DNA from: Candidatus Omnitrophota bacterium
GTDB taxonomy: Bacteria > Omnitrophota > Gorgyraeia > Gygaellales > Profunditerraquicolaceae
Length of the DNA: 64,000 nt
Direction: 5' to 3'
Assembly (NCBI GenBank): GCA_028716965.1
Contig: JAQUOV010000001.1
Span: 70,448-134,447, forward strand
Of this stretch, positions 42,945 through 62,421 are shown piece after piece. Numbering within the stretch: position 1 is the stretch's first letter; each line of letters starts with the position of its first letter. Below the pieces are notes generated by a model. That model worked only from the letters and a program-made list of their open reading frames with translations. It was not told where the DNA came from and ran no database searches. The position numbers were made by a program, and so were the translations under genes.

Positions 42945-42949
42945 TTTAT

Positions 42950-43723
42950 TTATCCCTGCCTGTACCTTTCAAATAATTTATCCGATGCCATCATCGCGCT
43001 CACCGTTTCCAGGTCAGCCAGGGTATCCACAGACTTGGTCTCATAATTTGTTAAGACCATCTTCACCTTTTGCCCATTCTCAAGTATTCGCATCATGTCA
43101 ACAGATTCAAATATCTCTAAAGGGGTCGGCTTCATCTTTGTATATTCCAAAAGAAATTCTTTCTTAAATGGTATTATACAAACCTGTTTGAGCATTGTAA
43201 CATTAGGAGAACCCTTTTTTCTTGAAGGTATGGGTTCTCTGGAAAAATATAACGCGTTATTAAGTTTATCCACTACTACCTTCACTTCGTTAGGATCCTC
43301 AAACTCTTTGACAGTCTTTATCCGGGCCATCAAATTCGTTATTTTAACTGCACTATCTTCCAAGAGAGGCTTCAGAGCCTCATCGATCATTTCCGGATAA
43401 GTGAGCGGCTCATCCCCCTGGATCATTACAACGATATCCACTTTCTTACCGGTCTCATTTTCTATTTTCAAAACTGCTTCGGCAGCGCGGTCCGATGCCC
43501 GCTCATGGGTGGCAGCAGTCATAACCGCCTTTGCGCCTAATGCATCCAAGTATTGTTTTATTTCTTGATCGCAGGTAGCAACATAAACCTCATTCATCAG
43601 TTTCGACATCTTGCTTCTCAGATAAACATGGCCAATCATGGGAATACCACATATTTTAGCCAGTGGTTTGCCGGGAAACCTTGAAGAAGCCATACGGCCA
43701 GGAATAATCCCGATGATATTCAT
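42950..43723 (-). CDS. KdsB/NeuA-like CMP-sugar cytidylyltransferase (CMP-ulosonate/nonulosonate synthetase)
   Basis: MNIIGIIPGRMASSRFPGKPLAKICGIPMIGHV parallels the KdsB N-terminus (IPARYASTRLPGKPL). Start trimmed to the ATG at 43723, one nt after the upstream stop; the track's 299-aa form carries a non-conserved leader. Confidence 0.75.
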   Translation of the reverse strand: MNIIGIIPGRMASSRFPGKPLAKICGIPMIGHVYLRSKMSKLMNEVYVATCDQEIKQYLDALGAKAVMTAATHERASDRAAEAVLKIENETGKKVDIVVMIQGDEPLTYPEMIDEALKPLLEDSAVKITNLMARIKTVKEFEDPNEVKVVVDKLNNALYFSREPIPSRKKGSPNVTMLKQVCIIPFKKEFLLEYTKMKPTPLEIFESVDMMRILENGQKVKMVLTNYETKSVDTLADLETVSAMMASDKLFERYRQG

Positions 43724-43724
43724 T

Positions 43725-44720: not shown

Positions 44721-45478
44721 CGGTATCGTTTCGTCATAGGAACACAAGATACTGCTTTCTGCAAAAATATTGTATCCATCCCATAAGCTATGAATTTAAA
44801 TCCCTGGGCGATCCTGCGCTTCAGATCGCGCTCGTCAGGATTAACTATATGTATGCCCAGCAGTTTATCTGAATCCTTCACCGCCTTGATTATTTTGTCA
44901 AGAACGGCATTAAATCTCTTATCGTTAAATTTACCGGGTATCCCCATTGAACCCGAAAGGTCATAAGGCCCGATGATACAGGCATCAATCCCTTTTAAAT
45001 TTAAGATCGAATCCAGGTTATCCAAAGCGTTAATATGCTCTATCTGGACTACCAGAATACTTGACCTATTTGCTTTACGGATATAACTCTCAAATTTCTT
45101 GCCGTATTGATGAGCCCTGCCTAAACCAAAGCTCCTTTTCCCAGTAGGAGGATAATTGACGGCATCGAGAGCCTTACGCGCGTCTTCTTCACAATTAATC
45201 ATCGGCACGATAACCCCTCCTGCGCCCGCATCCATGACGCGGCGTATTGTGCTGGGATCGTTTTCATTCAAACGAACAAGCGGAACTCCCCCTGAAAGAT
45301 TAATCACCTGAATCAACTTATAAACGTAATTTAAATCTATTAACCCGTGCTCCATATCAATAGCAAGCCAATCAAAGCCGGCTTTCGCCATAATCTCAGC
45401 ACTAAAAACATCCGGAAGCTGGATCCAGCTTCCTATTGATAACCTTTTTTTGCTTATCGAACTTTTTAGGTCTGTCAT
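44717..45478 (-). CDS. HpcH/HpaI-family class II (metal-dependent) pyruvate aldolase
   Basis: SIGSWIQLPDVFSAEIMAKAGFDWLAIDMEHGLID is the canonical N-terminal beta-strand/E-H region of HpcH/HpaI / citrate-lyase-beta-like aldolases. The size (253 aa) fits. Confidence 0.8.
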   Translation of the reverse strand: MTDLKSSISKKRLSIGSWIQLPDVFSAEIMAKAGFDWLAIDMEHGLIDLNYVYKLIQVINLSGGVPLVRLNENDPSTIRRVMDAGAGGVIVPMINCEEDARKALDAVNYPPTGKRSFGLGRAHQYGKKFESYIRKANRSSILVVQIEHINALDNLDSILNLKGIDACIIGPYDLSGSMGIPGKFNDKRFNAVLDKIIKAVKDSDKLLGIHIVNPDERDLKRRIAQGFKFIAYGMDTIFLQKAVSCVPMTKRYR

Positions 45479-45508: not shown

Positions 45509-47326
45509 CTATTCCACGCCTTCTTGCGATAATACTTTCTTACTCGCTATGTTTTGAAAAACAGGCGAGCGAAGGAATAACTCATTATAATTACCTTGAT
45601 CTGCTATTTTGCCGTGCTCCAGGACATAAATAAGATCCGCATGCTCAAGCGTGGCCAGACGATGAGTAACCAGTATAATAGTCATGCGGTCCTTTAAATT
45701 CTTAAGGGCTGCGTACAACTGTGCTTCGGTGTGGCCGTCTAATGCGGAACTCGCCTCATCAAGTATGAGTATTTCCGGATTCCTGTATAAAGCGCGAGCT
45801 ATGCCTATCCTCTGTCTCTGTCCCCCGGAAATCCTGACTCCTCTTTCACCTACTTTAGTATCCAAGCCTTCAGGCAGGGTTTTAATGAAAACTTCCAGCT
45901 GTGCGACTCTAATCGCATATTCAACCCTTGCACGGTCTATCTCCTGCTCAAGAACACCAAAAGCGACATTAGAAATAATACTGCCATCTAACAAAAAGAT
46001 ATGTTGAGGAACATACCCTATTTTACCCTGGTATTGGACCATGTTATCCTGGCTAATGGGCATATCGCAATAATCCAGGCGGCCTTTAAGCGGAGTAAGT
46101 AATCCTGTGAGCAGGTCAATAACTGTGCTCTTACCTGATCCAGTTTCACCGACAATAGCGCAAATACGATGAAGCGGAAAAAATATAGTTAAGCCTTCAA
46201 AAATTGGATGGGCTGCTGTTTGATAGCAAAACGTCACTTCTCTAAGAGAAATATTTTTAACTTGTGAGGAAACATTGATAGTCAAAACACCCTGATGACG
46301 ATCGTAATCATTTTCTTCCTTCAACACATCGTAAACGATATTCAAGCTATTCCCGCCAAAATGAAAAGATGCTACACTTTCGTATATTTTAGAAAAGGAA
46401 GCTGAAAGACGCATCATCGCTACCGCAAATACTGACATCATCGGAATAAACTCAATAAAGGGCTTATGCGAATATATAACAAAAAATACACCTAAAAGCG
46501 CCAGAATGACAAAAACTGTTTCAAGTATCTGCTTAGGTAAACTCGACACAGTAATAAATTTTACCAGGGCACTTGTATAACTTTTTGTAGATGTAAAATA
46601 TCCAGAAGCAAAATAATCATGGACATTGTATATTTTGATCTCTTTAACAGCCCCCAGAGATTCAAGAGCATTTTTATACAGCATCACGCTAAAAGTCTCG
46701 CGCTGCGCAGCATATGCCTTTATGCGTTTCCTAAAAAAAACGTTGACCAATAACGAAAGCAACCCGAAAATAACAAAGATGGCTATCGTCAATACAGGAT
46801 ATGTGTAGATAAGAAACAAGCATACGCCAGCGAGAATAATAACCTCGGAGGCGATGGATATAGCAGGACTTAATAAATAGTTAACGCAATTGTTCGCCTC
46901 TGATGAAGTATTTTTAAATAATTCGGATGAATTGTAAACCAAATGGTAGGAGTATGGTTTTTCTAAATAAGACGAAAGAACTTTTGACGTCAGACGACTA
47001 TAGATATTACCTAAAACCTTTTGTTTCTGATAAAGCATAAAAACTGAATACGCAGATCTTGCCAATAGAATCACGCAGGTCACTGCAATTAAAATAGCCA
47101 CAAATAAAAAAGTATCAGGAGAGCCACAAACATGATAAAGCCAGTTTAATACCGGGGTTGAACTGATCTTCTGAGGGAATATAAATAAAGTCATAAGAGG
47201 AAGTACTATCGCAATGCTGAATGTCTCTAAGAGCGACAATAGCATAGCGCCCACTCCCAACAAAACTAGCCGCCTCTTTTCAGATGCAGTAAGAATATTT
47301 CTTAACTTACTTAACAGTTCTTTCAT
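45509..47326 (-). CDS. ABC exporter, fused permease-ATPase (MsbA/ABCB-type)
   Basis: Six N-terminal TM helices, then Walker A GETGSGKST, signature LSGGQRQRIGIARAL, Walker B ILILDEASSALD and an H-loop VTHRL. Confidence 0.9.
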   Translation of the reverse strand: MKELLSKLRNILTASEKRRLVLLGVGAMLLSLLETFSIAIVLPLMTLFIFPQKISSTPVLNWLYHVCGSPDTFLFVAILIAVTCVILLARSAYSVFMLYQKQKVLGNIYSRLTSKVLSSYLEKPYSYHLVYNSSELFKNTSSEANNCVNYLLSPAISIASEVIILAGVCLFLIYTYPVLTIAIFVIFGLLSLLVNVFFRKRIKAYAAQRETFSVMLYKNALESLGAVKEIKIYNVHDYFASGYFTSTKSYTSALVKFITVSSLPKQILETVFVILALLGVFFVIYSHKPFIEFIPMMSVFAVAMMRLSASFSKIYESVASFHFGGNSLNIVYDVLKEENDYDRHQGVLTINVSSQVKNISLREVTFCYQTAAHPIFEGLTIFFPLHRICAIVGETGSGKSTVIDLLTGLLTPLKGRLDYCDMPISQDNMVQYQGKIGYVPQHIFLLDGSIISNVAFGVLEQEIDRARVEYAIRVAQLEVFIKTLPEGLDTKVGERGVRISGGQRQRIGIARALYRNPEILILDEASSALDGHTEAQLYAALKNLKDRMTIILVTHRLATLEHADLIYVLEHGKIADQGNYNELFLRSPVFQNIASKKVLSQEGVE

Positions 47327-47342: not shown

Positions 47343-49097
47343 TTAAAGTTTTCTTACAAACTGAGCCCATTCATTACGCCATTTCGTTGACGAACGGGCA
47401 AACTGAAAACAAAAATCATTCTTTGCACGTTGTAAATCAGGATTATTCCACCACACTAAAACATCTGGCCAAATATCATTTATCTTTTTAGCTGCCGTTT
47501 CTGGTCTATCATACAATATTCCGACAGACCGTAATTTATCAAAATACGGGGAGGCAGCTTCACAGACTCTGAAATGCGCAGGATCCCAATAAATAATTGT
47601 AGGAGTATTCATGGCCAGCGCCTCAAGAAAACTGGTAGTCTGATGATCAATCACGGCAAGCCTTGTCCGAGAAAAAAAGTTGCTTAATGACCCTGTGGTG
47701 AGAAACTGATTTTCAGGCAAAATTTGCTTAATAAACTCTAGTTCTTTGGTGCCATAATCATTGAAATAAGGCCTATATTTTACTTTTTTGAGTATATCTT
47801 TTCTAAGATGCTTCAAAAATATCATTTTACTTTTCATGTAATCAATTATCTGTCCCGGTTCCAGGTAATTATTCAACCTATACAGATAGGTGCCTGTTTC
47901 TGTTCCTACAAAAATAATACTATCTTCTTTTTCTGCATGCTTTTTCAACTTGCTAAGCATTGGAGAGGGTAATGCAAGATAATTCGCATTATATATATGC
48001 TTATGCCCCCATCCCCATGTTATAAACTCTCCGGAAGTTTCATATTCAAGCTTACCAACTGGAAACGATATAGATTGACCGTAAACACCGCCGTGTTGAG
48101 TAGAAATCCAACGGCCGCCGCTCTCCAGAATAAAAGCTATATCAGAACACTCTTTTTCTGATAAATACACATCCATACCCACCCATATTTTAATATTCGG
48201 GTCGATCTTTGTGTTATATTTGTAAACGCTCAGCAGCATATCCGGTATATGCTTTAACAATATCTCTTGTACAATCTTTTCAAATTTATTTTTCGCTCCG
48301 AAATCCAAGCGGACACGATTAAGATCTTCCCTTGCAATCTTAATCATCTTAGCAGGAATATCTACCTTTTTTTTTAATAAAAATACGGGGTCACGAACAA
48401 ACTGTAAATACATCTTATCTGTTAAAGACAAGCCGTATATCTTACCTAAGAAAACAGAAGAAGTAAAAAAACTATTTAGATAATTTTTAACGTTTTCTTT
48501 AGTTGATAATAAAATTTCTCTGATGCCGCTTTTAAAACTTTTTTCTTGACTAATGGCTCTCACATTTTGAAATATACTTACCTTAGTACAGTCTAAGAAA
48601 TCAAATCGCGCGTGATTTATAATATCTGTCATCAATAGAAGATTATGATAATGGCCTTCTGTAATCCTTGAGATAAAACCCCAGAAATCTCTAACCGTGG
48701 GATCATATTGATCAAGAATCTTAACCTCGAATCTTTCCTTAAAATTCTCTCCAATATATTCCAGCCTTCTATAGCGATCGTAAACAATACCCAACCAATG
48801 ATGCAGCCATAATATCATATAAGCATTCCAAAATTTTTCGCTATACGCCAAACGATGCAAGCTATTCATAATGCTGGCCATCTTTGGAATAATCCGATTA
48901 TATAATTCATCTATATATAACGTTGAATCAAGCATATCCTGTGACTTTTCCCATGGCGATGGCGCCAACTGAAATTTATCTTGTTCAAAAAAATCATATT
49001 TATCGTTATAACAAAAACAGTGCGCGCCAAGAAAAAGCGCCTGCTTCTCATTAGTTGGCCAAGTTTCTTTATGTCCAGTTAATACTAGTTCTCGCAT
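47343..49097 (-). CDS. Large (584 aa) uncharacterized soluble protein, candidate novel transferase
   Basis: No recognised motif. It lies between the ABC exporter and pseI. There is a faint GT-B-like C-terminal region (TIIYWDP...). Confidence 0.3.
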   Translation of the reverse strand: MRELVLTGHKETWPTNEKQALFLGAHCFCYNDKYDFFEQDKFQLAPSPWEKSQDMLDSTLYIDELYNRIIPKMASIMNSLHRLAYSEKFWNAYMILWLHHWLGIVYDRYRRLEYIGENFKERFEVKILDQYDPTVRDFWGFISRITEGHYHNLLLMTDIINHARFDFLDCTKVSIFQNVRAISQEKSFKSGIREILLSTKENVKNYLNSFFTSSVFLGKIYGLSLTDKMYLQFVRDPVFLLKKKVDIPAKMIKIAREDLNRVRLDFGAKNKFEKIVQEILLKHIPDMLLSVYKYNTKIDPNIKIWVGMDVYLSEKECSDIAFILESGGRWISTQHGGVYGQSISFPVGKLEYETSGEFITWGWGHKHIYNANYLALPSPMLSKLKKHAEKEDSIIFVGTETGTYLYRLNNYLEPGQIIDYMKSKMIFLKHLRKDILKKVKYRPYFNDYGTKELEFIKQILPENQFLTTGSLSNFFSRTRLAVIDHQTTSFLEALAMNTPTIIYWDPAHFRVCEAASPYFDKLRSVGILYDRPETAAKKINDIWPDVLVWWNNPDLQRAKNDFCFQFARSSTKWRNEWAQFVRKL

Positions 49098-50144
49098 TTA
49101 TCGCACTAAACCCCATGTTAAAGGAGTACCTCTTGTAATATCTTTGCGCGCGACTTTTCTTAGTATTCTTTTATAATATTTAGGTTCGATTCCGCAGGAC
49201 GGTCTTATCGAACGGATATTTTCTTCAGTCAACTGCTCACCTCTGCTTATGTCCTTAACTGCAAAAAGCGACCTTCTAAAATCCAAGCTTGTTTTTTCCT
49301 TAGCTGTTGGCCCGTAAAAAACATCACCTACCGCTCTTTCTGCCATCCTCACACTATTAACAAGTTCTTTTAATTCGATCGGCTCAATAGAAAAAGAACT
49401 ATCCGGAGTTTTTATCTTTCGTGATAATGTAAAATGCTTTTCAACCACTATAGCCCCAAGGCAGACTGCGGCAATCGATACTGCTGTTCCAAGCGTATGA
49501 TCCGAAAGCCCCACCCGACATCCAAAACGTTTTTTCATGTCCAATATGGTGCTAAGGTTCATCTCCCTTGGATCCGCGGGATAACTGCTCACACATTTAA
49601 GAAGAGTAATATCTTTTGATCCCGACTTCTTTGCTATATTAACGGCTTCCCTTATCTCCTGAATAGTAGCCATTCCTGTGGATAATATTATGGGTTTCTT
49701 AGTTTTGGCCGCATATTCGATCAATGACAAATCAATAAGTTCAAAAGACGCAATTTTATGGAAGGGAACTTTTAGATCTTCAAGGAAATCAATAGCTGTT
49801 TTATCAAAAGCTGTCGCAAAGAATGCCAGTCCTAAATTATCCGCTATGGTTTTTAGTTTTTTGAACCATCCCCAAGGTGTATACGCCTTTTTATACAATT
49901 CGTACAGGGTCTGACCTTTCCACTTACCGCTCTTTATCTTAAAATAATCATTGTTGCTATTAAAGGTGATGGTATCAGGAGTATAGACCTGAAATTTAAC
50001 TGCATCGGCGCCTGCTTCCTTTGCCGCCTTGATCATCTTGATAGCGTTATCGATCTTTTGATAATGGTTTGCCGATATTTCCGCTATTATGAAGGCTGAT
50101 TGTTTAAAACCAATCTTCTTTTCATATCTTCCCAAATTAGCCAT
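49098..50144 (-). CDS. pseI: Pseudaminic acid synthase-like NeuB-family enzyme
   Basis: FIIAEISANHYQKIDNAIKMIKAAKEAGADAVKFQ, plus the pseB/C/G/H context. The 5' end overlaps the WbqC-like gene by 58 nt, so the real start may be a non-ATG codon further in. Confidence 0.8.
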   Translation of the reverse strand: MANLGRYEKKIGFKQSAFIIAEISANHYQKIDNAIKMIKAAKEAGADAVKFQVYTPDTITFNSNNDYFKIKSGKWKGQTLYELYKKAYTPWGWFKKLKTIADNLGLAFFATAFDKTAIDFLEDLKVPFHKIASFELIDLSLIEYAAKTKKPIILSTGMATIQEIREAVNIAKKSGSKDITLLKCVSSYPADPREMNLSTILDMKKRFGCRVGLSDHTLGTAVSIAAVCLGAIVVEKHFTLSRKIKTPDSSFSIEPIELKELVNSVRMAERAVGDVFYGPTAKEKTSLDFRRSLFAVKDISRGEQLTEENIRSIRPSCGIEPKYYKRILRKVARKDITRGTPLTWGLVR

Positions 50145-50848
50145 TTAGAAGTACCTCCTTTAATAAGCTCTAATGTTTCTTTCGGCCCTACATTCATAAG
50201 CGCATCCGCAATTGAGAGGTAAGGAATAAAGCTATGAAGCGAACCAATCTGCTTATATTCTTTCGGTGTAAAACTCTGAAATATCACTTCAATATCTGCA
50301 ACAGGGAAAACTCCATCTTCCAGCATATATTCGAAAGCCCCCTTAGCAGAGAAGTACCGCTTTGCGCCACACCAATGTAAAAGCTCTAAAACTCGCTTTG
50401 AACGTTTTGATGATACGGGAAAATCCGAGCTAAGTCGGAATTCACGCTTCAAATCTAATAGACCACAAACCATCTTGATAAAAGATATGTTCATTTCCGC
50501 TAAAGAACTAAAATCTCCAAAAATCCATTCCTTTAGAGGTTTCAACATATCCTTAAAGAATGGTGCTTTTGAATAGTTTAGCTCTATCGCCTTCCACATC
50601 TTCACCCGCCATTTTGTAGCCTCGTTAATCCTTACTTCATTTAGCGGGGCCATAAATGAGGAAGTCTTTTGAACAGGCACAGTATACCATCCTATTTTTT
50701 CTTTATTCACAAAAAGACGGTTACGCTGCTGATAACTCTGCACAGAAAATTGGAAATCATCGAGAAGTATAAAAATTTCCGATCTATATATCAACTCAAA
50801 ATATCCCTGCCAAGGCGCGAAAGTAGGCTGCATCATAGCTACATCCAT
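50087..50848 (-). CDS. WbqC-family protein (conserved nonulosonate-cluster protein of unknown function)
   Basis: MMQPTFAPWQGYFELI...ILLDDFQF... is the characteristic WbqC-like N-terminus. Confidence 0.55.
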   Translation of the reverse strand: MDVAMMQPTFAPWQGYFELIYRSEIFILLDDFQFSVQSYQQRNRLFVNKEKIGWYTVPVQKTSSFMAPLNEVRINEATKWRVKMWKAIELNYSKAPFFKDMLKPLKEWIFGDFSSLAEMNISFIKMVCGLLDLKREFRLSSDFPVSSKRSKRVLELLHWCGAKRYFSAKGAFEYMLEDGVFPVADIEVIFQSFTPKEYKQIGSLHSFIPYLSIADALMNVGPKETLELIKGGTSKWLIWEDMKRRLVLNNQPS

Positions 50849-51339
50849 TCATCCCTCCGCAATCTTAAAAAGATGATCCTGCATCCGCGACTGGACCACT
50901 CATAATCAAGATTTAATTCTGCTTCCTTGAAACCGTTCTTTTTATAAAGGTTAATGGCCGCCAAATTAAAGTCAGCAACATGTAAATAAATCTCTTTTAA
51001 GCCTAATTTTTCAAAACAGTTCTCAAGCATCCCCTTCAGTGCTTTATCACCTATACCCATTCTTCTAGCAGGATGATCCCCGATATATATCCATACCTCC
51101 GCGCTTCTTTTAGACAAATCAATGTTCTTAATACCACAGTTCCCTACATGTAAATCATCTGAGATAATCGCATATACTTTTTGCGTAGGATCGCTCAATA
51201 CCTTTTTAAAATATTGAATATGCTGGCTGTAAGATACCTCACCGCGCATGAGGAATGCTCGACGCAACTCAACATCTTGAATCCATGTAAATGTTTTATC
51301 GATGTGTTCCTTGTTAAAATCTATTAAAACGGTTTCCAT
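50839..51339 (-). CDS. pseH: GNAT N-acetyltransferase, PseH-like (UDP-4-amino-4,6-dideoxy-N-acetyl-beta-L-altrosamine N-acetyltransferase)
   Basis: 166 aa. TFTWIQDVELRRAFLM...HIQYF and a later GNAT core (IGD...RRMGIG), in pse context. Confidence 0.65.
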   Translation of the reverse strand: METVLIDFNKEHIDKTFTWIQDVELRRAFLMRGEVSYSQHIQYFKKVLSDPTQKVYAIISDDLHVGNCGIKNIDLSKRSAEVWIYIGDHPARRMGIGDKALKGMLENCFEKLGLKEIYLHVADFNLAAINLYKKNGFKEAELNLDYEWSSRGCRIIFLRLRRDEWM

Positions 51340-51342: not shown

Positions 51343-52410
51343 TTAAATATCATAGTCCGTGCAACTTCGGCAAAAATCTATTTCCCCTATTTTTCCGATT
51401 TTGTTAAGCTTAAGGATATTCTTGCGTTCTTTGCCATTCCAAATCTCGTAGAGCGTACGCTCTTTGATATTACCCAGTTTTATTTCTGCATTATAAGCAG
51501 CATCACAAAGAGTAACATCTCCATTCGAAAAAATAAAACAGTCGTTGCGAGTGACGCGTAAACACGAAGTAAGGGGTTTCCGAATCCTTTGTTTTAACCC
51601 GAAAGAATTGTTAGGAAGAGTTACATACTCTAGCATATTGACGCTCACAATTTCGGCCTTTTTATAATGCATTCTAATGAAATCATCAACTTCATGACAG
51701 GTAGTCTCCTGTTCTATCATTTGACAATGCAGATATGGTCTTTTCGGCAACCCCGCAGATCCCTTTATCTCATAGAATTTATTCAGGTTATTCTGAACTG
51801 CATTAAAATCCCCCTGTGGAACAACGGTTTTATAAGCTTTCTCCGTAACCGCATGAACAGAAAAATTTATGTAGTGTAGATTTGATCCAAATACCAAGCG
51901 TATCTTCTCTTCCGTAAAATATTGTCCGTTAGTACTCATCCATATAATACCTAAGTTGTTCTTGGTACTTATATGCTTAAGGTTATCCGAAAATTCCGGA
52001 TGCAATAATGATTCTCCCAAATGATAAAGCCATATACCCTCTATACCATGACTATCTATCTCGTCTATCACTTTTCTGTAAAGCTTCCCGTCCATATCCA
52101 TCCGCGGGCGCTTCAAGCCATGCTGGGGACACATTCTACAAAGATAATTACAACGGCTAGTCATTTCAAATAATATTCTGCGTGGAAAACTTTCGCGATT
52201 CAAATAACTACTTGTGGGAGGCTGTCGCCGTATAGGAACCACGGCAAACTCTTTTCTTGCTAGCTCCTCAGCATATTTTAAATTATTCGGATCTGTAACT
52301 AACGAAAGATGCTGTGTCATCAGGACAGGGGCAATCTTTTTAAGATCAAGAAATTTTGGAATTACTGGATTATTTACTTTTACATATCTTGCAAGATCTA
52401 CAAATTCCAT
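51343..52410 (-). CDS. Radical SAM enzyme with SPASM/twitch-like C-terminal domain
   Basis: EMTSRCNYLCRMCPQ (CxxxCxxC) and a C-terminal CDAAYNAEIKLGNIKERTLYEIWNG...CRSC. A paralog of the 36423..37469 protein. Confidence 0.75.
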   Translation of the reverse strand: MEFVDLARYVKVNNPVIPKFLDLKKIAPVLMTQHLSLVTDPNNLKYAEELARKEFAVVPIRRQPPTSSYLNRESFPRRILFEMTSRCNYLCRMCPQHGLKRPRMDMDGKLYRKVIDEIDSHGIEGIWLYHLGESLLHPEFSDNLKHISTKNNLGIIWMSTNGQYFTEEKIRLVFGSNLHYINFSVHAVTEKAYKTVVPQGDFNAVQNNLNKFYEIKGSAGLPKRPYLHCQMIEQETTCHEVDDFIRMHYKKAEIVSVNMLEYVTLPNNSFGLKQRIRKPLTSCLRVTRNDCFIFSNGDVTLCDAAYNAEIKLGNIKERTLYEIWNGKERKNILKLNKIGKIGEIDFCRSCTDYDI

Positions 52411-52425
52411 ATGACTAACCTCACG

Positions 52426-53316
52426 TTATTTGTTAATTGGGCTCGCATATATCGTAACCTGCCTGCCCAGATCCAACTCAGCTAATGCCTTATATAGCTT
52501 TAAAAGTTTATCTTCCTTCCCATATTTGCGCATCAACCGTTCAAATCTTACCCGGCGCAGATGGCATATTTTACCTAAATCCGGATTGCCTACGTATACA
52601 TCCCCCATCAGCATAAATATCTCAAGCGGAAAAGAAGATTCACTATGGATAACTTTATAACCGCATTTGGATAAAAGCCTCTTTAAAGACGTCGCGGAAA
52701 AATAGTTAATGTGATTCGGTGGACATACCCACCATCTCTTCAGGCCATATTCTTTATCGGCAAGCTCCTGAAAATCGTTAAATTCATTAGGCACATCTAC
52801 TACAAGTAATCCTTTAGGCTTGATCAATTTTCTCTTAATATTTAAGAGCGTACTAGCAGGATGACGCAGGTGTTCCAAAACGTTAATCATCGTAATTATA
52901 TGAAACCGCTCTTTTCCTACACAAGAGAAATCTTCAATGCCACATTGAAAAACATTCAACCCTTTACTCTTTATATATTCCGCTCCCTCCTTAGATGGCT
53001 CCAGGCCGCTCACCCTAATACCTTTATTATGAAAGTAAAGCAGTGCTTGACCAAAACCACATCCAACATCAAAGAGTGTTAATCCTTTATGCGTTTTAAA
53101 ATATTCGCTACAATACTTGGATATTGATGCCCAGCGACTGTTGAAAAAACCCTGCTCTTCTTTTTGCACTTTTAACGATGAATCATTAAATTGTTTATAC
53201 GTAGTAGAGTAAAAATCTTCCAGATAGAATCTCTCTACCTCTTCTTGTGTTGGAATGGGGTCTATACGTAAATAGCCATATTTTGGATCAGCTATAATCT
53301 TGTATCGTTTCTTCAT
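52426..53316 (-). CDS. Class I SAM-dependent methyltransferase
   Basis: TLFDVGCGFGQALLYFHNKGIRVSGLEPS (motif I), LLVVDVPN and FDVITMINVLEHL. Confidence 0.8.
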   Translation of the reverse strand: MKKRYKIIADPKYGYLRIDPIPTQEEVERFYLEDFYSTTYKQFNDSSLKVQKEEQGFFNSRWASISKYCSEYFKTHKGLTLFDVGCGFGQALLYFHNKGIRVSGLEPSKEGAEYIKSKGLNVFQCGIEDFSCVGKERFHIITMINVLEHLRHPASTLLNIKRKLIKPKGLLVVDVPNEFNDFQELADKEYGLKRWWVCPPNHINYFSATSLKRLLSKCGYKVIHSESSFPLEIFMLMGDVYVGNPDLGKICHLRRVRFERLMRKYGKEDKLLKLYKALAELDLGRQVTIYASPINK

Positions 53317-53336: not shown

Positions 53337-54353
53337 TTAAGAAAACATGGCATTAGCGCATCTTTGGACGCCAAGGCCATCAACCAATTTAAAACTTGCT
53401 TCTGAATACCGTTTTAATATCTCAGAGTTTGATAAAAAATAGTCTATTCTATCCCTTATGTCTGTTGCAGTGACATCTTGAGCATCGCCAAGATAGTCAA
53501 GTATTTCATTTCTTGCCAAGTACTCTATAATCCTGGCTTGATTCTCTGTTACTGTCATTACCATAGATGGCAACCCTAAGCAACAACGTTCCCAGGTCGC
53601 TATTCCGGCCGAACCTATAAACAAATCAGATTCAAGCATCAACTCGGCAATGTTCTCTACGTTATGATAACAAAAAACAGTAGCCTTATCTTTTATAAGA
53701 TGCTGCAATTCAGTCTTGTTGGGATTATCAACCCCTATAACTAGATTTACAGCGATCTCTTGTCTTTTAAGCAAAAAAACGCCTTCAAGGATATTTTTTG
53801 TTATATTTTTCATATCGCTTCCACCAAAAAAAATCAATATTTTCTTAATCAAACCGCTCCTGACTCTTGTCTTTTGTCTTGCGATGGCAAATTCCTTTCG
53901 CAAAAGTGCAAATCTCGGCCCTAGAAGCATCTGGCAATTTCCAGACACTAAAGACTTATAATGATCTTCTAAGCCTTTATATAAATTCTGATCAAGCAGA
54001 AAATCACAAATATGCTCACGACTCCCCATATCATCGATAACCATGACTTTATCTACGAAAGGCCTTATCGCTTTCTCCCATTCAATATTCAATCCATAGT
54101 TATCAATAACCAAGTAAGATGGTCCACTATTATTCGTACATATTTTTTTGATTGCTTGCGGTGAATCATCCTCAATATAAAAAATGTCACACCCGTTCTT
54201 GTTTATTAAACTTTCAAATCCTTTATTCAACCTACGGCATATAAAGGATACATGCAATCCGCGTTCAACTAAGATATTTGCCAACGCCAGACACCTTATA
54301 AGATGGCCAGAGCCTATTTCCGGCGCAGCATCAACTCTGAATAATGCTTGCAT
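53337..54353 (-). CDS. pseG: UDP-2,4-diacetamido-2,4,6-trideoxy-beta-L-altropyranose hydrolase (PseG-like, GT-B/MurG-like fold)
   Basis: MQALFRVDAAPEIGSGHLIRCLALANIL is the signature PseG N-terminus (FRxDA..IGxGHxMRCL.LA). Confidence 0.8.
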   Translation of the reverse strand: MQALFRVDAAPEIGSGHLIRCLALANILVERGLHVSFICRRLNKGFESLINKNGCDIFYIEDDSPQAIKKICTNNSGPSYLVIDNYGLNIEWEKAIRPFVDKVMVIDDMGSREHICDFLLDQNLYKGLEDHYKSLVSGNCQMLLGPRFALLRKEFAIARQKTRVRSGLIKKILIFFGGSDMKNITKNILEGVFLLKRQEIAVNLVIGVDNPNKTELQHLIKDKATVFCYHNVENIAELMLESDLFIGSAGIATWERCCLGLPSMVMTVTENQARIIEYLARNEILDYLGDAQDVTATDIRDRIDYFLSNSEILKRYSEASFKLVDGLGVQRCANAMFS

Positions 54354-54369: not shown

Positions 54370-55680
54370 CTAGGTTAATCTCTTGAATCCGGAATGGCAG
54401 ACGGGTCCTTTCAAATAAAGTTCCGGTCTATTCTTTTTAAGCGCTTTTGATATAGAAGCAAAAACGCTCTCTACAGCTTCTAAATAAACTTCAATGTGCT
54501 TCTCTTTATGCGCATAAGAAGCATAGTAAGCGTTTGTCGCTAAGAATCCCTTCTGAAGCATGTACTGCGTAAAAAGCGTCTTCAAAACTAGAGGTTCCTT
54601 ATAATTAAAAGAGAAATGAGAAAGTGGGTATATTCCATCTACTTTTATATCTACAGAATGTCTCTCCGCTGATATTTTCCATCCATTCTGAATCTTCATA
54701 CCCATAAGGTTAAGATGTTCAGGAATATTGTTAAGTTTCATCTTTTTTATAGCGGCCAACGCTGCCGCCGGTCCAATACGGTCAGTCCAATAGGTGCTGC
54801 TGATAAAGCTATCTTGGGCGTTCTGCATAATCTTTTTTCTACCTATTATCGCTGCCATTGGAAAACCATTGCTGATAGCCTTAGCAAATACCGCTATATC
54901 CGGTTCTATATTAAACAATTTATGCGCGCCGCCAACACATAGGCGCCATCCGGAAGAAACTTCATCCATAATAAGCACGGCTTTTGCTTTACGACTTTCA
55001 TTTCTTACAACTTCCAGAAAACCGCTTGACGGATATTTGTTTCTTATCGGCTCAATAATCACAGCTGCAATTTTACCCTTATATTTATTTATCAGGCTCA
55101 AGAATGTTTGCGTATCATTATAATTAAAGGGTATGGCTGTACCCTTTAATGCACGGGGCACTCCCTTAGGTTCTAATCCCGATAATAGATGCCCATCCAA
55201 AGATTTGTCATCTGCAAGGTTAGATGCCAAATACCAATCACTCCACCCATGATAGCCGCAAAAAAGTATTAAGTCCTTTCCTGTCGCAGCGCGCGCGATT
55301 CTAACGGCAATTGCCATTGCCTCTCCACCGCATCTGGCATACCTAACCATATCAGCCCAAGGATGAAGCTTAATAAGTAATTCCGCCAACTCTACTTCTT
55401 CGGGCACATTAAGCGTTGTCATGTTGCCACAGCTTACTGCTCTTTTTACCGCTTTATCAATATCGGGATCAGTATATCCTATAATACAGGCGCCAATTCC
55501 CATATAACTCATATCTATATATCGTTTCCCATCAAGATCCCAAATTTCACATCCTTTAGCTTTACTGTAATAAGCCGGCCAGTTTTCCGGTAAGAACATC
55601 TCCGGCCGCTTTGAAAAAAGTTGCGTGCCTCCAGGTATCAACTTTTTAGCTTTTTTATATAGTTCCTGTGATTTACCCAT
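54370..55680 (-). CDS. Class-III PLP aminotransferase (glutamate-1-semialdehyde aminomutase-like)
   Basis: LIPGGTQLFSKRPE, then a PLP Lys region (FAKAISNGFP). Start trimmed to the ATG at 55680 (MGKSQELY); the track start at 55704 is a TTG. Confidence 0.75.
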   Translation of the reverse strand: MGKSQELYKKAKKLIPGGTQLFSKRPEMFLPENWPAYYSKAKGCEIWDLDGKRYIDMSYMGIGACIIGYTDPDIDKAVKRAVSCGNMTTLNVPEEVELAELLIKLHPWADMVRYARCGGEAMAIAVRIARAATGKDLILFCGYHGWSDWYLASNLADDKSLDGHLLSGLEPKGVPRALKGTAIPFNYNDTQTFLSLINKYKGKIAAVIIEPIRNKYPSSGFLEVVRNESRKAKAVLIMDEVSSGWRLCVGGAHKLFNIEPDIAVFAKAISNGFPMAAIIGRKKIMQNAQDSFISSTYWTDRIGPAAALAAIKKMKLNNIPEHLNLMGMKIQNGWKISAERHSVDIKVDGIYPLSHFSFNYKEPLVLKTLFTQYMLQKGFLATNAYYASYAHKEKHIEVYLEAVESVFASISKALKKNRPELYLKGPVCHSGFKRLT

Positions 55681-56836
55681 TTTTATGACGATTGCATACC
55701 TCAAAAACAGTGTTAATGATATATTGAATTTCCCTGCTGGTCAACGCAGGATATATCGGAAGACTGATTTCTCTATGATAAAAATCTTCAGCTGCTGGAC
55801 AGATTCCTTTTTTAAAGCCGAGTTTTTTATAGTAAGGGTGCAAATAAACAGGAATATAATGTACCTGAACCCCTATTTTTTTATCCCTAAGGAGCTTAAA
55901 TATACCGTCTCTTTTTAATTCTAAATCTTTTTTCAGCCTGATGGGATAAAGATGGTAGGCGCAAAACACATCTTTATTTTCTTTAGGAACATCGAAGAAA
56001 TGATTGCCATTAAAAGCTTTATTATATGTAACGGCAATTTTACGCCTTTTTTCTATAAAAAAATCCAGCTTCTTCAACTGAGATATTCCAAGCGCGGACT
56101 GGATATCAGTCAAACGATAATTAAATCCAAGCTCCTGCATCTCATAATACCAACCACAATATCTCATTTTTCTATCTAACGATTTAGAATCCTTGGTAAT
56201 CCCATGATTGCGCAGCATTAAAAGACGTTGATATAGTCTTTTATTGTTCGTCAATACCGCCCCGCCTTCCCCTGTAGTAATTGCTTTTACAGGATGAAAA
56301 CTAAGAATAGCCATATCTGAATATTTACAAGAGCCTATTTTTGAACCTTTATACCTAGCTCCCAAGGCATGCGCCGCATCTTCAATAATCAATAAATCAT
56401 TCTTTCTTGCAATAATAGCTATCTCCTGCATATCGCATGGATATCCGGCGAAGTGAACTGGTACTAAAACTTTTGATTTCCTGGTTATTTTTTTAACTAT
56501 ATCGATTGGGTCTATATTACCGGTTTCCGGTTGTATATCCGCAAAAATAGGCTTTGCTCCGCAATAAAGAATGCAATTCGCAGAAGCTGCGAACGTTATA
56601 GGTGAAGTTATGGCCTCATCCCCGCGCCTTAATCCGGCAGATAAAGCTGCAATATGTAACGCGGCCGTACCGCTTGATACAGCCACCGCAAATTTAACGC
56701 CTGCATAATCACAAAGAGCGCTTTCAAATTCCGCGATCTTTGGCCCCTGCGTAATCCATTCAGAATTAAGGGCTCCTACTACTTCCCTAACATCATCCTG
56801 GTTAATACATTGATGTCCGTAAGGAATAGTTTTCAT
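55673..56836 (-). CDS. pseC: UDP-4-amino-4,6-dideoxy-N-acetyl-beta-L-altrosamine transaminase-like (PseC; DegT family)
   Basis: IPYGHQCINQDDVREVVGALNSEWITQGPKIAEFESALCDYAGVKFAVAVSSGTAALHIA is the typical PseC N-terminus. Start trimmed to the ATG at 56836 (MKTIPYG), immediately after the pseB stop. Confidence 0.85.
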   Translation of the reverse strand: MKTIPYGHQCINQDDVREVVGALNSEWITQGPKIAEFESALCDYAGVKFAVAVSSGTAALHIAALSAGLRRGDEAITSPITFAASANCILYCGAKPIFADIQPETGNIDPIDIVKKITRKSKVLVPVHFAGYPCDMQEIAIIARKNDLLIIEDAAHALGARYKGSKIGSCKYSDMAILSFHPVKAITTGEGGAVLTNNKRLYQRLLMLRNHGITKDSKSLDRKMRYCGWYYEMQELGFNYRLTDIQSALGISQLKKLDFFIEKRRKIAVTYNKAFNGNHFFDVPKENKDVFCAYHLYPIRLKKDLELKRDGIFKLLRDKKIGVQVHYIPVYLHPYYKKLGFKKGICPAAEDFYHREISLPIYPALTSREIQYIINTVFEVCNRHKNG

Positions 56837-57855
56837 ATTGATTTTAACGCCTTTCGTAGCTCTGTTTGCGTCAACCATTTTTTATTAGTATCACTAGCAT
56901 AGCTGAATCCTACAGGCACTTTTGTATATTTTTCATATTTTTCGTTAATTGCCCTTCCCCCTGAGAATTGCGGCATAATAACATAGAGACCATTAAATAT
57001 CTTTGCATTCCGCGCCTCATCACATGAAATTAGAAGCTCATGCAGCTTTTCTCCCGGTCGAATACCTATTTTCTTAAATTTGCATTCAGGCAGGATCGCT
57101 CGGGCAAGATCTACTATCTTCATAGACGGTATTTTTGGAACAAATATTTCGCCGCCTTCGGCCTCTTTAAGAGCCGTAATCACAAAATTAACACTCTGTT
57201 CCAAAGTCATCCAAAAACGCGTCATTGCATCATCGGTAATGGGAAACTCGGTTATACCGCGCCGTTTAAGATCAAGAAAAAGCTCAATAACGCTTCCTCT
57301 TGAAGCCATAACATTACCATAACGAACGACGGAGAACTTAACACGATTTCCGCCATAAGCGTTCGCGTTGATAAATATCTTTTCAGCTACCAGCTTAGTG
57401 GCACCATAAAGATTAATAGGATTTACCGCTTTATCCGTCGACAGTACTATAACTTTTTTTACGCCTCGGTCAAGAGCCGCATCAACAATATTATCGGCCC
57501 CTTGTATATTAGTCTTTACCGCTTCAAGAGGGTTATATTCAAGCGCTGGCACCTGTTTTAAGGCAGCGGCATGAATAACATAATCTACCCCCTCAAAAGC
57601 CCTACAAAGACGCCCCTTATCCCTGACATCTCCTAAGAAAAAACGAATCGGGTACTTGTCATCCGGAAATACTTTTGCCATTTCGCTTTGCTTGAATTCG
57701 TCCCTGCTGAAAATTATAAGCTTCTTTAATTTGAATTTTTTAAATACCATTTCGGTAAACTTCTTACCGAAAGAACCTGTTCCACCGGTCACCAGAATTA
57801 CTTTATCTTTCAAGTTCACAATCCCCTCCTCGCTCATCTTCCCATAGGCCATCAT
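56833..57855 (-). CDS. pseB: UDP-N-acetylglucosamine 4,6-dehydratase (inverting) / 5-epimerase (PseB/FlaA1-like)
   Basis: KVILVTGGTGSFGKKF...IIFSRDEFKQSEM...STDKAVNPINLYGATK is the short CapD/PseB-type SDR. Confidence 0.85.
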   Translation of the reverse strand: MMAYGKMSEEGIVNLKDKVILVTGGTGSFGKKFTEMVFKKFKLKKLIIFSRDEFKQSEMAKVFPDDKYPIRFFLGDVRDKGRLCRAFEGVDYVIHAAALKQVPALEYNPLEAVKTNIQGADNIVDAALDRGVKKVIVLSTDKAVNPINLYGATKLVAEKIFINANAYGGNRVKFSVVRYGNVMASRGSVIELFLDLKRRGITEFPITDDAMTRFWMTLEQSVNFVITALKEAEGGEIFVPKIPSMKIVDLARAILPECKFKKIGIRPGEKLHELLISCDEARNAKIFNGLYVIMPQFSGGRAINEKYEKYTKVPVGFSYASDTNKKWLTQTELRKALKSI

Positions 57856-59752
57856 TTATAAAGAAAGCACTCTCTATGTTATTTACTTTCTTATACCGCT
57901 CCGCTGCTAAATCCAGCGATTTAATAGGATCCCTGCTTACGACCACATCTTCCATAAAAATTCGGATAAATTCGCTTATTCTACTCTGACCTTTAAAATC
58001 ACCGAAATAGTTAAAAACATCTTTCCATTTAGAAAAATCTCCTATCCTGGTATCTCCTGTGCTCACTCGATTAAGAGCTGATACTATTTCCTCGAGATTC
58101 TTAAAAAATATCTTTTGCTCCGGATCTCTGTATATCGGATAATGTAGAAATCCGGATAAGTCCCAATGTATAGCCCTATGACCATAAATACCACTTATTA
58201 TTCCCGCCGAGTTCAAACCATAACAAACTGATATATTTGCATACGCCGCAGCTGTAATAGGCGAAACTTTGTTATTAAGAAAAACAAGTCTTCTCTGATT
58301 GATAAGCAACATTGCTTTTGAAACGATATCTTTACCGAAAGGCAAAGATTCAAGGTCATTTATTCTACCCCAGATTTTACTCTTTATTATCCCACCCCAT
58401 TCTGAGTTTTCCTCAAGCATCTCCAATACCTTAAGGTAGAATCTGGCCAAAGTCTCCTCTGATTGATGTATATTATACGCCACAGTAGAATCAAAAATTG
58501 CCATGATAAATCTTAGATCATCTTTCATACAGATCGCGCTGACATCTTCAACCGAGGGTCCCAACCATATACCCACCGGCAAAACATGACGGGCAATATT
58601 GCCCCTCTTTTGCATCCGTTCATACATCACTTTACCCCAAACAAAATATACATGCTGAGGATGGGACATCAAAGCTTCCTTGTAAAATGGAAAATTGGAC
58701 CAATGATACCCCAGCATAATCCCACCTACTTCTTCAAGTGCTATCATCTGTGGCTCTTTCACCCAAGACCCTTCCTGATGTTCAATCAGCACTTTCACCT
58801 TAAAGCGGCTGAAGACCGCTTTGTAGAGAAGATAAAACATTCTGAATTCGAACCGGAAAACTCTAAACCAAAACGGAGAACTCGAATAAGCGGAAAGAAA
58901 AGTACAAAACATATCCCAAAGTTGCCAAACACCTATATTGGCAAGCCGCACAAGAGAACCTGAACGCAAATCTACCCATTTTAAGCCCATATCCTCTATA
59001 GCCCTGATCTCATCCTCTAAAGAAACACCATCATTCCGATCAAGATAACAAACGATATCAAATTTCTTTCTATCTATGACATCGTGATTAAATGGAAAAC
59101 TACACCTACCATAATGAAGATACTCTAACCAGACGGATGGCTTGGGCTCATGAATATTAGTTCTTCCTCTTTTCTGAAATAACCTTTTCACCACAATTGA
59201 AAAAAGCCTGCAACACGGTATTAAAAAATAATTAACATACCCAAAAGATAACCCAGATTCCCTTATGCTATAACCTTTATCTCTATAATACTTCTTAATC
59301 ACTGAAGTTAAAGGATGCTTAGCCAGATAAATCACATTTATTCCACCATCTTGCTTAAACTTATCGCTACCCTCAACCATAGTTATAAATGTAACATAAG
59401 GCGCTAAATAAAAACTTATATATACTTTTACCGCGCTTTTAAAGCGCTCTGGTTCTTTCGGAATATACCTCTGGCAAAATTTACTCAGACAGATATCAAG
59501 ATCATTCTCCTTCCTATAGTTAAGGGCATAGCCTATCACATCTTTTTTATCCAAAGTCAATTTTGCCATATAAAAATTTTTGCAACAACCATAACTTTGC
59601 AATTTGCCAATTAAGAATGCTGCAATACCAGAAATCTTTTTTTCATCATACCTAACAGGAATTCGAGAAAAAAAAGTTTCGATAAATAGCCATATAAAAT
59701 CAAACATACCAAGCTTTTCAACCCAAATTGACAGTATCCTTTTATATCGCAT
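57803..59752 (-). CDS. Large (649 aa) uncharacterized protein, candidate novel transferase
   Basis: No recognised motif and mostly soluble. It sits between a B12 radical SAM gene and pseB, and its 3' end overlaps the pseB start by about 50 nt. Confidence 0.3.
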   Translation of the reverse strand: MRYKRILSIWVEKLGMFDFIWLFIETFFSRIPVRYDEKKISGIAAFLIGKLQSYGCCKNFYMAKLTLDKKDVIGYALNYRKENDLDICLSKFCQRYIPKEPERFKSAVKVYISFYLAPYVTFITMVEGSDKFKQDGGINVIYLAKHPLTSVIKKYYRDKGYSIRESGLSFGYVNYFLIPCCRLFSIVVKRLFQKRGRTNIHEPKPSVWLEYLHYGRCSFPFNHDVIDRKKFDIVCYLDRNDGVSLEDEIRAIEDMGLKWVDLRSGSLVRLANIGVWQLWDMFCTFLSAYSSSPFWFRVFRFEFRMFYLLYKAVFSRFKVKVLIEHQEGSWVKEPQMIALEEVGGIMLGYHWSNFPFYKEALMSHPQHVYFVWGKVMYERMQKRGNIARHVLPVGIWLGPSVEDVSAICMKDDLRFIMAIFDSTVAYNIHQSEETLARFYLKVLEMLEENSEWGGIIKSKIWGRINDLESLPFGKDIVSKAMLLINQRRLVFLNNKVSPITAAAYANISVCYGLNSAGIISGIYGHRAIHWDLSGFLHYPIYRDPEQKIFFKNLEEIVSALNRVSTGDTRIGDFSKWKDVFNYFGDFKGQSRISEFIRIFMEDVVVSRDPIKSLDLAAERYKKVNNIESAFFINDGLWEDERGGDCELER

Positions 59753-59764: not shown

Positions 59765-61177
59765 TCAGGTTTGCCTAAAACCTCTAAAATCTTTGTTTTT
59801 ACTTAAGTAGAGCTTCTCTGCCTCACTGATCATAGTATCTGCCTTTTTACTAAAATAATTACTTATAAGCTTTGTGTTAGCCGATAATAAAGCCTTGTGA
59901 ATTTCTTTATCGCTCATTTCGGTAAAATTAACCGCTAAAAGATCGGAATTTATATGCTTATTTTCATAAAAATCTTCGCAATCTTTTAATAGACCCTTCT
60001 CTATAGCATGATAGTAAAGTGGCGAACCAGGATATGGAGTAACCGGGCGTATCGTGCGCATTTGCGCACCATCATCGTATTTTAATAAAAATTCTACACC
60101 CTTTTGTAGAGTTTCATCACTATCACCAATATTGCCAAAAATAATATTGAATCCAGGACTAATCCCACTAGCTAGCGTTGCATTAATACCTTCGATAATT
60201 TGTTTTACTGTTAGAATCTTTTTCATGTTCTTCAATACTTGATCATCCATAGCCTCAATTCCATAATTTATAAAAACACAACCTGCCTGCTTCATTAATT
60301 TAAGGAGGTCAATTTTCGCATAATTAAGACGTCCGTTACAGTCCCATTTGATATTAAGTTTCGCTTTAATAAAATCCTTACAAAGCATTTCAGTTCTTTC
60401 CATTGAAGACATCAATAATTCATCGGAAAAAGCGATATACGTTATCCCATATTTCTCCTTCAATAACCGGACCTCATCAATTATGCTCTCATTTGAACGT
60501 GGCCTAAACCCTTCATCAAGACGATAACAAAAACTACAGGTAAAGTTACATCCCCTACCAGAAAGCACAGGCATTACAAAATCAGTATTGGTCACATGAG
60601 GCATCCGTAAAAGTCTATAATACTCTACCGGAAAAAGATGGAAAGCTGGAAAAGGTATTTGATCAATATCTTTGATCAGCTCACGTTTTTTATTTATGAC
60701 AACATCATCTCCTTCACGAAAAGCGATTCCATTAATATTTGAAAGAGATTTTTTATTGATAATTGCATCCAACAATTCCACAATCGTTACTTCCCCTTCA
60801 CCCATAACAACAGCATCTGCAGAGGTACGTCTTAGAAAAAACTCTGGTTCTGGAGACGGGCCATGCCCTCCAATAATGTAAAATGGCCGACGGCGCGAGT
60901 TGTTTATTGCTCGGGAAATACGTAAAAGTTTATTATATTGGTAATAACCAGCAATCACGCTAACACCGATAATATCAAATACATTCTTATTTAGGTATTG
61001 AGTAAGATGGTTATCGTGATAATGTTCTTTATCTTGATTGTATATTTCAACATAATATCCCGCCTTTTCCATTACCGATGCTATATACGCCAAACCTTGC
61101 GGAAACCAATGAATATATGAATCGTTATCGTAAGCTACCAGTAAAATTTTGGCATTCTTATTTTTTCTAGTATGCAT
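59765..61177 (-). CDS. B12-binding radical SAM enzyme (class B)
   Basis: KILLVAYDNDSYIHWFPQGLAYIASVM (B12-like domain) and LSGRGCNFTCSFCYR (CxxxCxxC). Confidence 0.8.
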   Translation of the reverse strand: MHTRKNKNAKILLVAYDNDSYIHWFPQGLAYIASVMEKAGYYVEIYNQDKEHYHDNHLTQYLNKNVFDIIGVSVIAGYYQYNKLLRISRAINNSRRRPFYIIGGHGPSPEPEFFLRRTSADAVVMGEGEVTIVELLDAIINKKSLSNINGIAFREGDDVVINKKRELIKDIDQIPFPAFHLFPVEYYRLLRMPHVTNTDFVMPVLSGRGCNFTCSFCYRLDEGFRPRSNESIIDEVRLLKEKYGITYIAFSDELLMSSMERTEMLCKDFIKAKLNIKWDCNGRLNYAKIDLLKLMKQAGCVFINYGIEAMDDQVLKNMKKILTVKQIIEGINATLASGISPGFNIIFGNIGDSDETLQKGVEFLLKYDDGAQMRTIRPVTPYPGSPLYYHAIEKGLLKDCEDFYENKHINSDLLAVNFTEMSDKEIHKALLSANTKLISNYFSKKADTMISEAEKLYLSKNKDFRGFRQT

Positions 61178-62412: not shown

Positions 62413-62421
62413 TTTACCTCC

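Follow-up and report, generated by a model that had tools for sequence, protein, structure and literature searches.

Pseudaminic acids decorate flagella, pili, capsules and lipopolysaccharide (LPS), where they influence how cells move, are recognised by phages and evade immunity. To our knowledge, the known routes to these sugars all use ordinary two-electron enzymes, and the canonical pathway (PseB, PseC, PseH, PseG, PseI and PseF) includes no radical S-adenosylmethionine (SAM) enzyme, methyltransferase, WbqC protein or class III aminotransferase. Here we analyze a 64-kb stretch of DNA from a Candidatus Omnitrophota bacterium (the window, whose numbering is used for all coordinates except those given with a locus identifier), which encodes PseB, PseC, PseG and PseI together with a cytidylyltransferase (42950-43849). 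Between two genes of this pseudaminic acid (pse) cluster lies a two-gene module encoding a class I SAM-dependent methyltransferase (MT) and a twitch-type radical SAM enzyme (rSAM). Comparison with related loci showed that MT and rSAM are inherited and lost as a pair inside pse operons, and the two genes are best read as a tailoring module, optional and portable, that belongs to a variant of the pseudaminic acid (Pse) pathway found mostly in anaerobes.

Twitch enzymes of aminoglycoside biosynthesis (NeoN, HygY and SpeY) act on the carbinol carbons of amino sugars, and an H-donor residue decides whether the epimer or the ketone is formed. Compared by description, these enzymes work in antibiotic biosynthesis in Gram-positive bacteria, whereas the family studied here occurs in the surface-glycan operons of anaerobes and of an archaeon. 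A twitch domain is a shortened form of the SPASM domain, with three or four cysteines and a single auxiliary [4Fe-4S] cluster (PMC9012708). In BtrN, the 2-deoxy-scyllo-inosamine dehydrogenase of butirosin biosynthesis (PDB 4M7T), a radical SAM core is combined with a one-cluster, four-Cys twitch domain, and the same architecture is predicted for the window rSAM. BtrN catalyzes an O2-independent two-electron oxidation in which the four-Cys auxiliary cluster is thought to be the electron acceptor (PMC9012708). Its substrate is a small amino-sugar-like molecule, an aminocyclitol whose secondary alcohol is converted to a ketone. While BtrN works in the butirosin pathway alongside a DegT-type aminotransferase, the window rSAM is encoded in a pse operon and is coupled to a methyltransferase; with this pse rather than btr context, low identity to BtrN and additional domains, it falls outside the BtrN family as defined by orthology and a 2-deoxystreptamine cluster. 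Full-text literature searches for radical SAM enzymes with pseudaminic, legionaminic or nonulosonic acid, for WbqC and for twitch sugar epimerases returned nothing on the module. What is new is that nonulosonic acid biosynthesis has recruited a BtrN-like twitch enzyme together with a methyltransferase dedicated to it; as a class, such enzymes are already established.

The module starts with the 296-residue MT (52426-53316, minus strand), followed by the 355-residue rSAM (51343-52410, minus strand). An earlier, sequence-only reading of this region had placed two genes at 51343-53316, and both are indeed minus-strand open reading frames (ORFs) with exactly those ends. The second protein is a radical SAM enzyme: it matches Pfam Radical_SAM (PF04055, E 2.4e-12, 47.8 bits against a cut-off of 29.5), its model superposes on radical SAM structures, and it carries the CX3CX2C motif (C87, C91 and C94; 52129-52152, minus strand) of the SAM-binding [4Fe-4S] cluster. 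In an alignment of 15 orthologues that are 57-70% identical to the window rSAM, and that also served as the basis of our family hidden Markov model (HMM), these three cysteines are invariant in every sequence. Toward the C-terminus, only C283, C302, C347 and C350 are invariant, all within the twitch domain (51361-51564, minus strand). The sequence-only reading had called the enzyme a SPASM protein, a label that holds insofar as Pfam SPASM matches (E 5.8e-13, 49.4 bits); the seven-Cys domain with two auxiliary clusters that marks the full SPASM subfamily was not found. The chain ends five residues past C350, the last residue of the CX2C pair, and so lacks the CX5CX3C segment that a complete SPASM domain would have. 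The motifs thus place rSAM in the twitch subclass, with a truncated SPASM domain and one predicted auxiliary [4Fe-4S] cluster.

Both profile and structure comparisons point to BtrN. In a profile search of the PDB, BtrN was the top match by far (E 6.8e-15), with MoaA second (E 7e-3), and the BtrN alignment covers not only the core of rSAM but also its C-terminal cluster domain. Furthermore, the four invariant auxiliary cysteines of rSAM stand opposite the four cysteines of the BtrN C-terminal domain in the HMMER alignment. An AlphaFold (AF2) model of rSAM (pLDDT 79, pTM 0.80) likewise gave BtrN as its top Foldseek match (E 3.3e-11, TM 0.67 normalised to BtrN). The two proteins also differ: identity is only ~18%, and rSAM has an additional N-terminal domain of ~75 residues ahead of the radical SAM core (52186-52410, minus strand) as well as an insert of ~80 residues (residues 200-281, unaligned to BtrN) that separates the core from the twitch domain. 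The N-terminal domain, which is missing from BtrN (the BtrN alignment begins at rSAM residue 79), is predicted with high local confidence (pLDDT 92-98 across residues 1-60) and is conserved by the orthologues from residue 1 (MEFxDLSRY).

The Pfam SPASM match, the Foldseek hits that follow BtrN (SkfB and SuiB) and the best NCBIfam families, which are maturases (the tungsten-cofactor maturase TIGR04317 and spiro-SPASM), would also be expected of a maturase of RiPP-type peptides or proteins, or of a metallo-cofactor, that sits in a glycan operon by chance. We consider this highly improbable. All NCBIfam scores of rSAM are far under the cut-offs (93.7 bits against 380 for TIGR04317), and the auxiliary domain is predicted to have one cluster and not two. 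The stretches between PseG and MT, between MT and rSAM, and between rSAM and the downstream acetyltransferase gene measure 20, 15 and 3 nt; these gaps are too short to house a precursor peptide gene beside rSAM, and they indicate that MT, rSAM and the flanking genes form a single operon. In addition, the pse context is kept in about 18 of the 21 genomes described below.

MT matches Pfam Methyltransf_23 (PF13489, E 6.3e-23, 81.7 bits against a cut-off of 27), has a glycine-rich motif I (VGCGFG) near residue 84 and finds class I methyltransferases in the PDB, which together identify it as a class I SAM-dependent methyltransferase. We recovered 617 homologues, and those listed (59-71% identity) are full length. 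MT does not belong with the sugar C3-methyltransferases of the TcaB9/TylC3 type, to which it gave weak, core-only matches (E about 1e-3, residues 81-224). Pfam showed no Methyltransf_13 or Methyltransf_14 match, and comparison with TIGR04371, the model for NanM-type sugar O-methyltransferases, gave none at E <= 1e-3.

The two genes travel together as a conserved unit. A genome scan found 21 rSAM loci, about 18 of which are pse clusters, in hosts that are overwhelmingly anaerobes, and a metagenome scan anchored on WbqC added 80 loci. Of the 34 non-redundant rSAM loci with room upstream, 24 carry MT immediately upstream of rSAM and another 7 carry it at some other place in the locus; further contexts anchored on MT had rSAM directly downstream in six out of six. 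Of the WbqC-anchored clusters, 33 were non-redundant and had sufficient upstream DNA; neither gene was present in 21 of these, both in 9, MT with another partner in 3 and rSAM alone in none. The module is also cleanly present or absent in one and the same gene background: four clusters have the backbone of a class III, GSA-aminomutase-like aminotransferase (AT3), PseG, a GNAT N-acetyltransferase (GNAT), WbqC and PseI without MT-rSAM (L040, L053, L078 and L101, the first three with PseG, GNAT, WbqC and PseI as immediate neighbours), while the window and seven other loci have the pair exactly between PseG and GNAT (L038, L042, L051, L057, L063, L076 and L091). The description of the pair as a two-gene insert was therefore borne out by syntenic pse clusters both with and without it. 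In one locus, MT-rSAM has shifted as a unit relative to GNAT-WbqC (L104).

The most frequent gene order is PseB-PseC-(AKR-PseF)-AT3-PseG-MT-rSAM-GNAT-WbqC-PseI. The hosts include Dehalococcoidales, Geobacteraceae, Nitrospirae, Syntrophaceae, Rhodocyclaceae, Desulfobulbaceae, Desulfocapsaceae, Verrucomicrobia, Omnitrophota, Binatia, Desulfarculia, Elusimicrobia, Zambryskibacteria and the archaeon Ca. Methanoperedens, and two of them are cultured (Desulfonema magnum 4be13, with its locus at NZ_CP061800.1: 3,044,721-3,065,785, and Desulfovibrio sp. OH1186_COT-070). Across these phyla, orthologues of the window rSAM are 57-77% identical. An identical 355-aa protein is on record from a Candidatus Omnitrophica metagenome-assembled genome (MAG), and an independent Logan contig has the same gene order as the window. 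The module reached the window as a ready-made, widespread cassette and is not specific to this locus. A recent insertion of the module was considered and rejected: the GC contents of the two genes (0.379 and 0.378) equal those of their neighbours (0.373-0.383) and give no sign of such an event.

A radical SAM step in a nonulosonic acid pathway, if true, would extend the chemistry of this sugar family and bring BtrN-like twitch enzymes a new class of substrates. It would also point to an undescribed Pse derivative that is widespread in anaerobic sediments, in groundwater lineages such as Omnitrophota and the candidate phyla radiation (CPR), in sulfate reducers and in Ca. Methanoperedens. The module is compact, at two genes and about 2 kb, and is present in cultured strains, which makes it directly testable.

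The module very probably tailors the Pse sugar or its N-acyl group. As to how, we tentatively favor a BtrN-type oxidation of a Pse intermediate coupled to O-methylation, a reading by analogy to which we give somewhat less than an even chance of being correct as a whole. The SAM-bound cluster would generate a 5'-deoxyadenosyl radical, which would abstract a hydrogen from a carbon of the Pse intermediate, either at the 2,4-diamino-2,4,6-trideoxy-L-altrose stage or in the nonulosonate itself. The auxiliary cluster, predicted to be fully ligated by its four Cys, would accept the second electron, as in BtrN, leaving a two-electron-oxidised centre without any need for O2. MT would then methylate an oxygen function at or adjoining this centre, and the resulting oxidised, O-methylated Pse derivative would be activated and placed on a surface glycan or on flagellin. 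Taken separately, the assignment of MT as an O-methyltransferase is about as probable as its opposite, and BtrN-type two-electron oxidation by rSAM, as opposed to epimerisation or another radical reaction, is somewhat less likely than not.

A number of observations weigh against this coupled oxidation and methylation. The identity of rSAM to BtrN is low, as given above, and twitch enzymes of the same architecture also serve as sugar epimerases (NeoN and HygY). A ketone is not an obvious substrate for an O-methyltransferase, which leaves the chemical link between rSAM and MT a conjecture, and the step that would naturally come after a BtrN-type oxidation, in which AT3 transaminates the ketone, is not obligatory. 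The family matches of the window MT are generic, with none to TIGR04371. Furthermore, 3 of the 34 rSAM loci have no orthologous MT, and two of the genome loci (L009 and L016) lie outside recognisable pse clusters. Finally, the two partner exchanges described below, a swap to a PhyH-family protein and a fusion to a NanM-type methyltransferase, were each seen once.

Since BtrN-like architecture is shared by twitch dehydrogenases and epimerases, the sequence-only reading's suggestion of epimerisation stays viable. In this case rSAM would be a radical epimerase that takes a hydrogen from a carbinol carbon of the Pse intermediate and returns it to the opposite face, giving for example the 4- or 8-epimer of Pse, and MT would O-methylate the reoriented hydroxyl, a coupling that is chemically natural. 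Twitch sugar epimerases such as NeoN and HygY differ from the dehydrogenases mainly by an H-donor cysteine. We found a candidate in C291, a non-cluster cysteine present in 13 of the 15 orthologues; however, it is Ala in the other two (P0097 and P0103), and Leu or Val replaces C229 in 4 of the 15, so that no non-cluster cysteine is invariant. The nearest characterized relative is, moreover, a dehydrogenase. Fe/2OG enzymes like the PhyH protein discussed next are also able to epimerise, and altogether we regard epimerisation as a doubtful but credible reading.

One pse cluster without rSAM has an MT orthologue (52% identical to the window MT) with a different partner. Here, a PhyH-family Fe(II)/2-oxoglutarate (2OG) dioxygenase (L095 5437-6252, E 7e-24) lies directly upstream of the MT gene and overlaps it, and the MT nests within the rSAM-linked MTs in a neighbour-joining tree (drawn with no bootstrap values). 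This single example suggests that an O2-dependent enzyme that oxidises C-H bonds can substitute for rSAM. Because PhyH-family dioxygenases are typically hydroxylases, the swap is best fitted by a reading in which rSAM is an O2-independent hydroxylase, with H abstraction, oxidation through the auxiliary cluster and capture of water at a deoxy carbon (C3 or C9) or at the N-acetyl methyl of Pse. MT would cap the new hydroxyl as a methoxy group, and PhyH would be the aerobic counterpart. This would be the simplest account of the strict coupling of MT to rSAM, and the fusion of a sugar O-methyltransferase to an rSAM orthologue (see below) is in line with it. However, we know of no hydroxylating twitch radical SAM enzyme and of no methoxy-Pse, and the PhyH replacement occurs in one locus only. 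We therefore consider hydroxylation unlikely; if true, it would define a new class of methoxy-nonulosonic acids and give Fe(II)/2OG sugar hydroxylases their first counterpart in anaerobic chemistry.

The second exchange concerns the methyltransferase. In L009 (1439-3694), a NanM-type putative sugar O-methyltransferase is in frame with an rSAM orthologue, with no intervening stop codon, in a 751-aa ORF. The methyltransferase part matches TIGR04371 (101.5 bits against a cut-off of 44) and is not orthologous to the window MT, which is of a different class I family (Methyltransf_23). The fusion is one case on a 4.7-kb MAG contig and could be an assembly error. Nevertheless, this independent association of a methyltransferase with rSAM suggests sugar O-methylation, and perhaps a physical complex of MT and rSAM.

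A further protein, a metallo-beta-lactamase (MBL)-fold protein of 430 aa with an HxHxDH motif, recurs beside MT, often on the opposite strand; its matches in the PDB and NCBIfam were insignificant. It is found with MT and without rSAM in L074, L084 and L086 (8190-9482). The possibility that it is an O2-dependent substitute for rSAM was weakened by its occurrence together with MT and rSAM in L018 (8577-9857), L019 (7617-8912) and L107 (7967-9259)/L108.

We also asked about the genes on the other side of the module. The pair could modify the N-acyl side chain provided by GNAT and WbqC, for instance by oxidising and methylating an aminoacyl or hydroxyacyl group on N7 or N5. The commonest gene order does put the module directly beside GNAT-WbqC, and both GNAT-WbqC fusions and an ATP-grasp ligase in L109 indicate acyl-group chemistry in the cassette. 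Against this, MT-rSAM moves independently of GNAT-WbqC (L104, L014 and L015), GNATs are very divergent or undetected in 5 of 19 module clusters, and BtrN-like enzymes target ring carbons. An N-acyl target is accordingly quite improbable.

AT3 (54370-55704, minus strand; PF00202, E 3e-44) is the other candidate partner. In a sample that is biased to clusters resembling that of the window, 16 clusters had both AT3 and rSAM, 3 had rSAM only and 5 had AT3 only. Loci with rSAM but no AT3 are L011, L013 and L042, and AT3 without rSAM is seen in the four backbone clusters named above. A BtrN-style sequence of oxidation followed by transamination was rejected as an obligatory couple, since the two genes are separable both ways, although it is possible in some clusters. 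Three fusions of a cytidylyltransferase (CTP_transf_3) to AT3, of ~680-700 aa, were seen (L103 3783-5825, L005 3199-5283 and L014 4742-6847), and this arrangement suggests that AT3 acts together with the CMP-activation step.

The window contains a second twitch radical SAM enzyme (36423-37469, minus strand, 348 aa), which lies outside the module and served as a comparator. The sequence-only reading had noted that both enzymes have the same CxxxCxxC spacing and a similar C-terminal cysteine pattern, and this was confirmed: the second enzyme has C37, C41 and C44 where rSAM has C87, C91 and C94, and both show C-x18-C...C-x2-C (283/302/347/350 in rSAM, 242/261/304/307 in the second). It had further proposed that the two are paralogues. 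This holds only remotely, with 20% pairwise identity and a BLASTP score of 58 bits. The family HMM gives the second enzyme 85.7 bits (E 1.5e-26), compared with 58 bits for BtrN, and has no match to the window's three B12-radical SAM proteins; the second enzyme, too, finds BtrN as its best PDB match (E 1.5e-10). Because of this HMM score and the common best PDB match, the two enzymes can be said, from their sequences, to be related beyond the generic core and to fall inside a BtrN-like twitch group.

The same comparison argues against the idea that one enzyme was recently duplicated into two local sugar-acid pathways with a shared, locus-specific chemistry such as C-methylation. It is true that both BtrN-like twitch enzymes share a single glycan island with two synthases of the NeuB family. 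However, 20% identity within the pair, set against 57-77% for orthologues of rSAM across phyla and in an archaeon, points to an ancient split and not to a duplication within the locus. The neighbourhoods differ as well, the second gene being flanked by a B12-radical SAM gene and a gene for an unannotated 610-aa protein. In the fetched loci, the only twitch/SPASM genes seen that resemble the second enzyme are ~22-26% identical to it. C-methylation by rSAM itself is unlikely: Pfam found no B12-binding domain (PF02310) in it, and it is thus not a class B radical SAM methylase like GenK and Fom3, which also modify sugars or small molecules and do have this domain, while the window has three separate B12-radical SAM genes. 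A recent duplication with shared chemistry is consequently very hard to credit.

The genes around the module are those of a pse cluster with additions. PseB (56833-57855; TIGR03589, 477 bits), PseC (55673-56878; TIGR03588, 507 bits), PseG (53337-54353; TIGR03590, UDP-sugar hydrolase, 274.1 bits against 153.6) and PseI (49098-50144; TIGR03586, pseudaminic acid synthase, 468 bits against 340), all on the minus strand, exceed the NCBIfam cut-offs, which establishes the cluster as pse. Of the two flanks of the module named in the sequence-only reading, the upstream one is a true PseG. The downstream one, a GNAT (50839-51339, minus strand; Pfam Acetyltransf_3), scores 67.1 bits against the TIGR03585 cut-off of 93.1 and is PseH-like only. 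Nor are the pse genes contiguous apart from the module, as had been stated, since AT3 and a WbqC-family gene (50087-50848, minus strand; PF08889, E 2e-59) are interleaved as well. Downstream of PseI are a LIC12162-family transferase (47343-49097, minus strand; TIGR04331, 378 bits against 225) and an ABC exporter (45509-47326, minus strand; Pfam ABC_membrane and ABC_tran), which suggest that the sugar is probably put on a polysaccharide in hosts of this type. In one metagenomic genome, the genes that come after the cassette encode a Maf-like (MptE/Maf_flag10) protein and flagellin (L103 11446-14897), and these neighbours point to the modified sugar being on flagellin in some hosts.

The WbqC gene is directly upstream of PseI in nearly all of the 80 metagenome loci. 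GNAT-WbqC fusions of 416-435 aa occur (P0224 and L020 11090-12397), and in L109 the ATP-grasp ligase (8556-9689) takes the position of WbqC. A confident AF2 model of WbqC (pLDDT 90.7) had no significant fold match in the PDB (best E 0.048), and its sequence had no PDB match. On this model, WbqC seems to have a fold that is as yet uncharacterised, and it may serve to form amides.

Elsewhere in the island, the cobalamin-binding radical SAM genes (59765-61177, 37459-38967 and 29604-31130) encode proteins that are 23-24% identical to one another, and such genes recur in related pse clusters (L005, L010, L014, L104 and L106). Two large proteins, of 649 aa (57803-59752) and 610 aa (34594-36426), each adjoin a radical SAM gene; neither matched a Pfam or NCBIfam family, and they resemble neither one another nor the LIC12162-family transferase. 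A second sugar-acid gene set spans 28623-44747. It includes a NeuB-family synthase (31941-32954) that is 34% identical to PseI, a second cytidylyltransferase (31127-31927), an AKR, a nitroreductase, a HAD protein, a cyclase, a 2-hydroxyacid dehydrogenase, an HpcH aldolase and two more methyltransferases. Upstream of PseB, the region 61177-63958 encodes a WbuX-type N-acetyl sugar amidotransferase (TIGR03573, 357 bits) with HisH-like (62422-63099) and HisF-like (63077-63958) partners, a trio that is usually tied to acetamidino groups on amino sugars.

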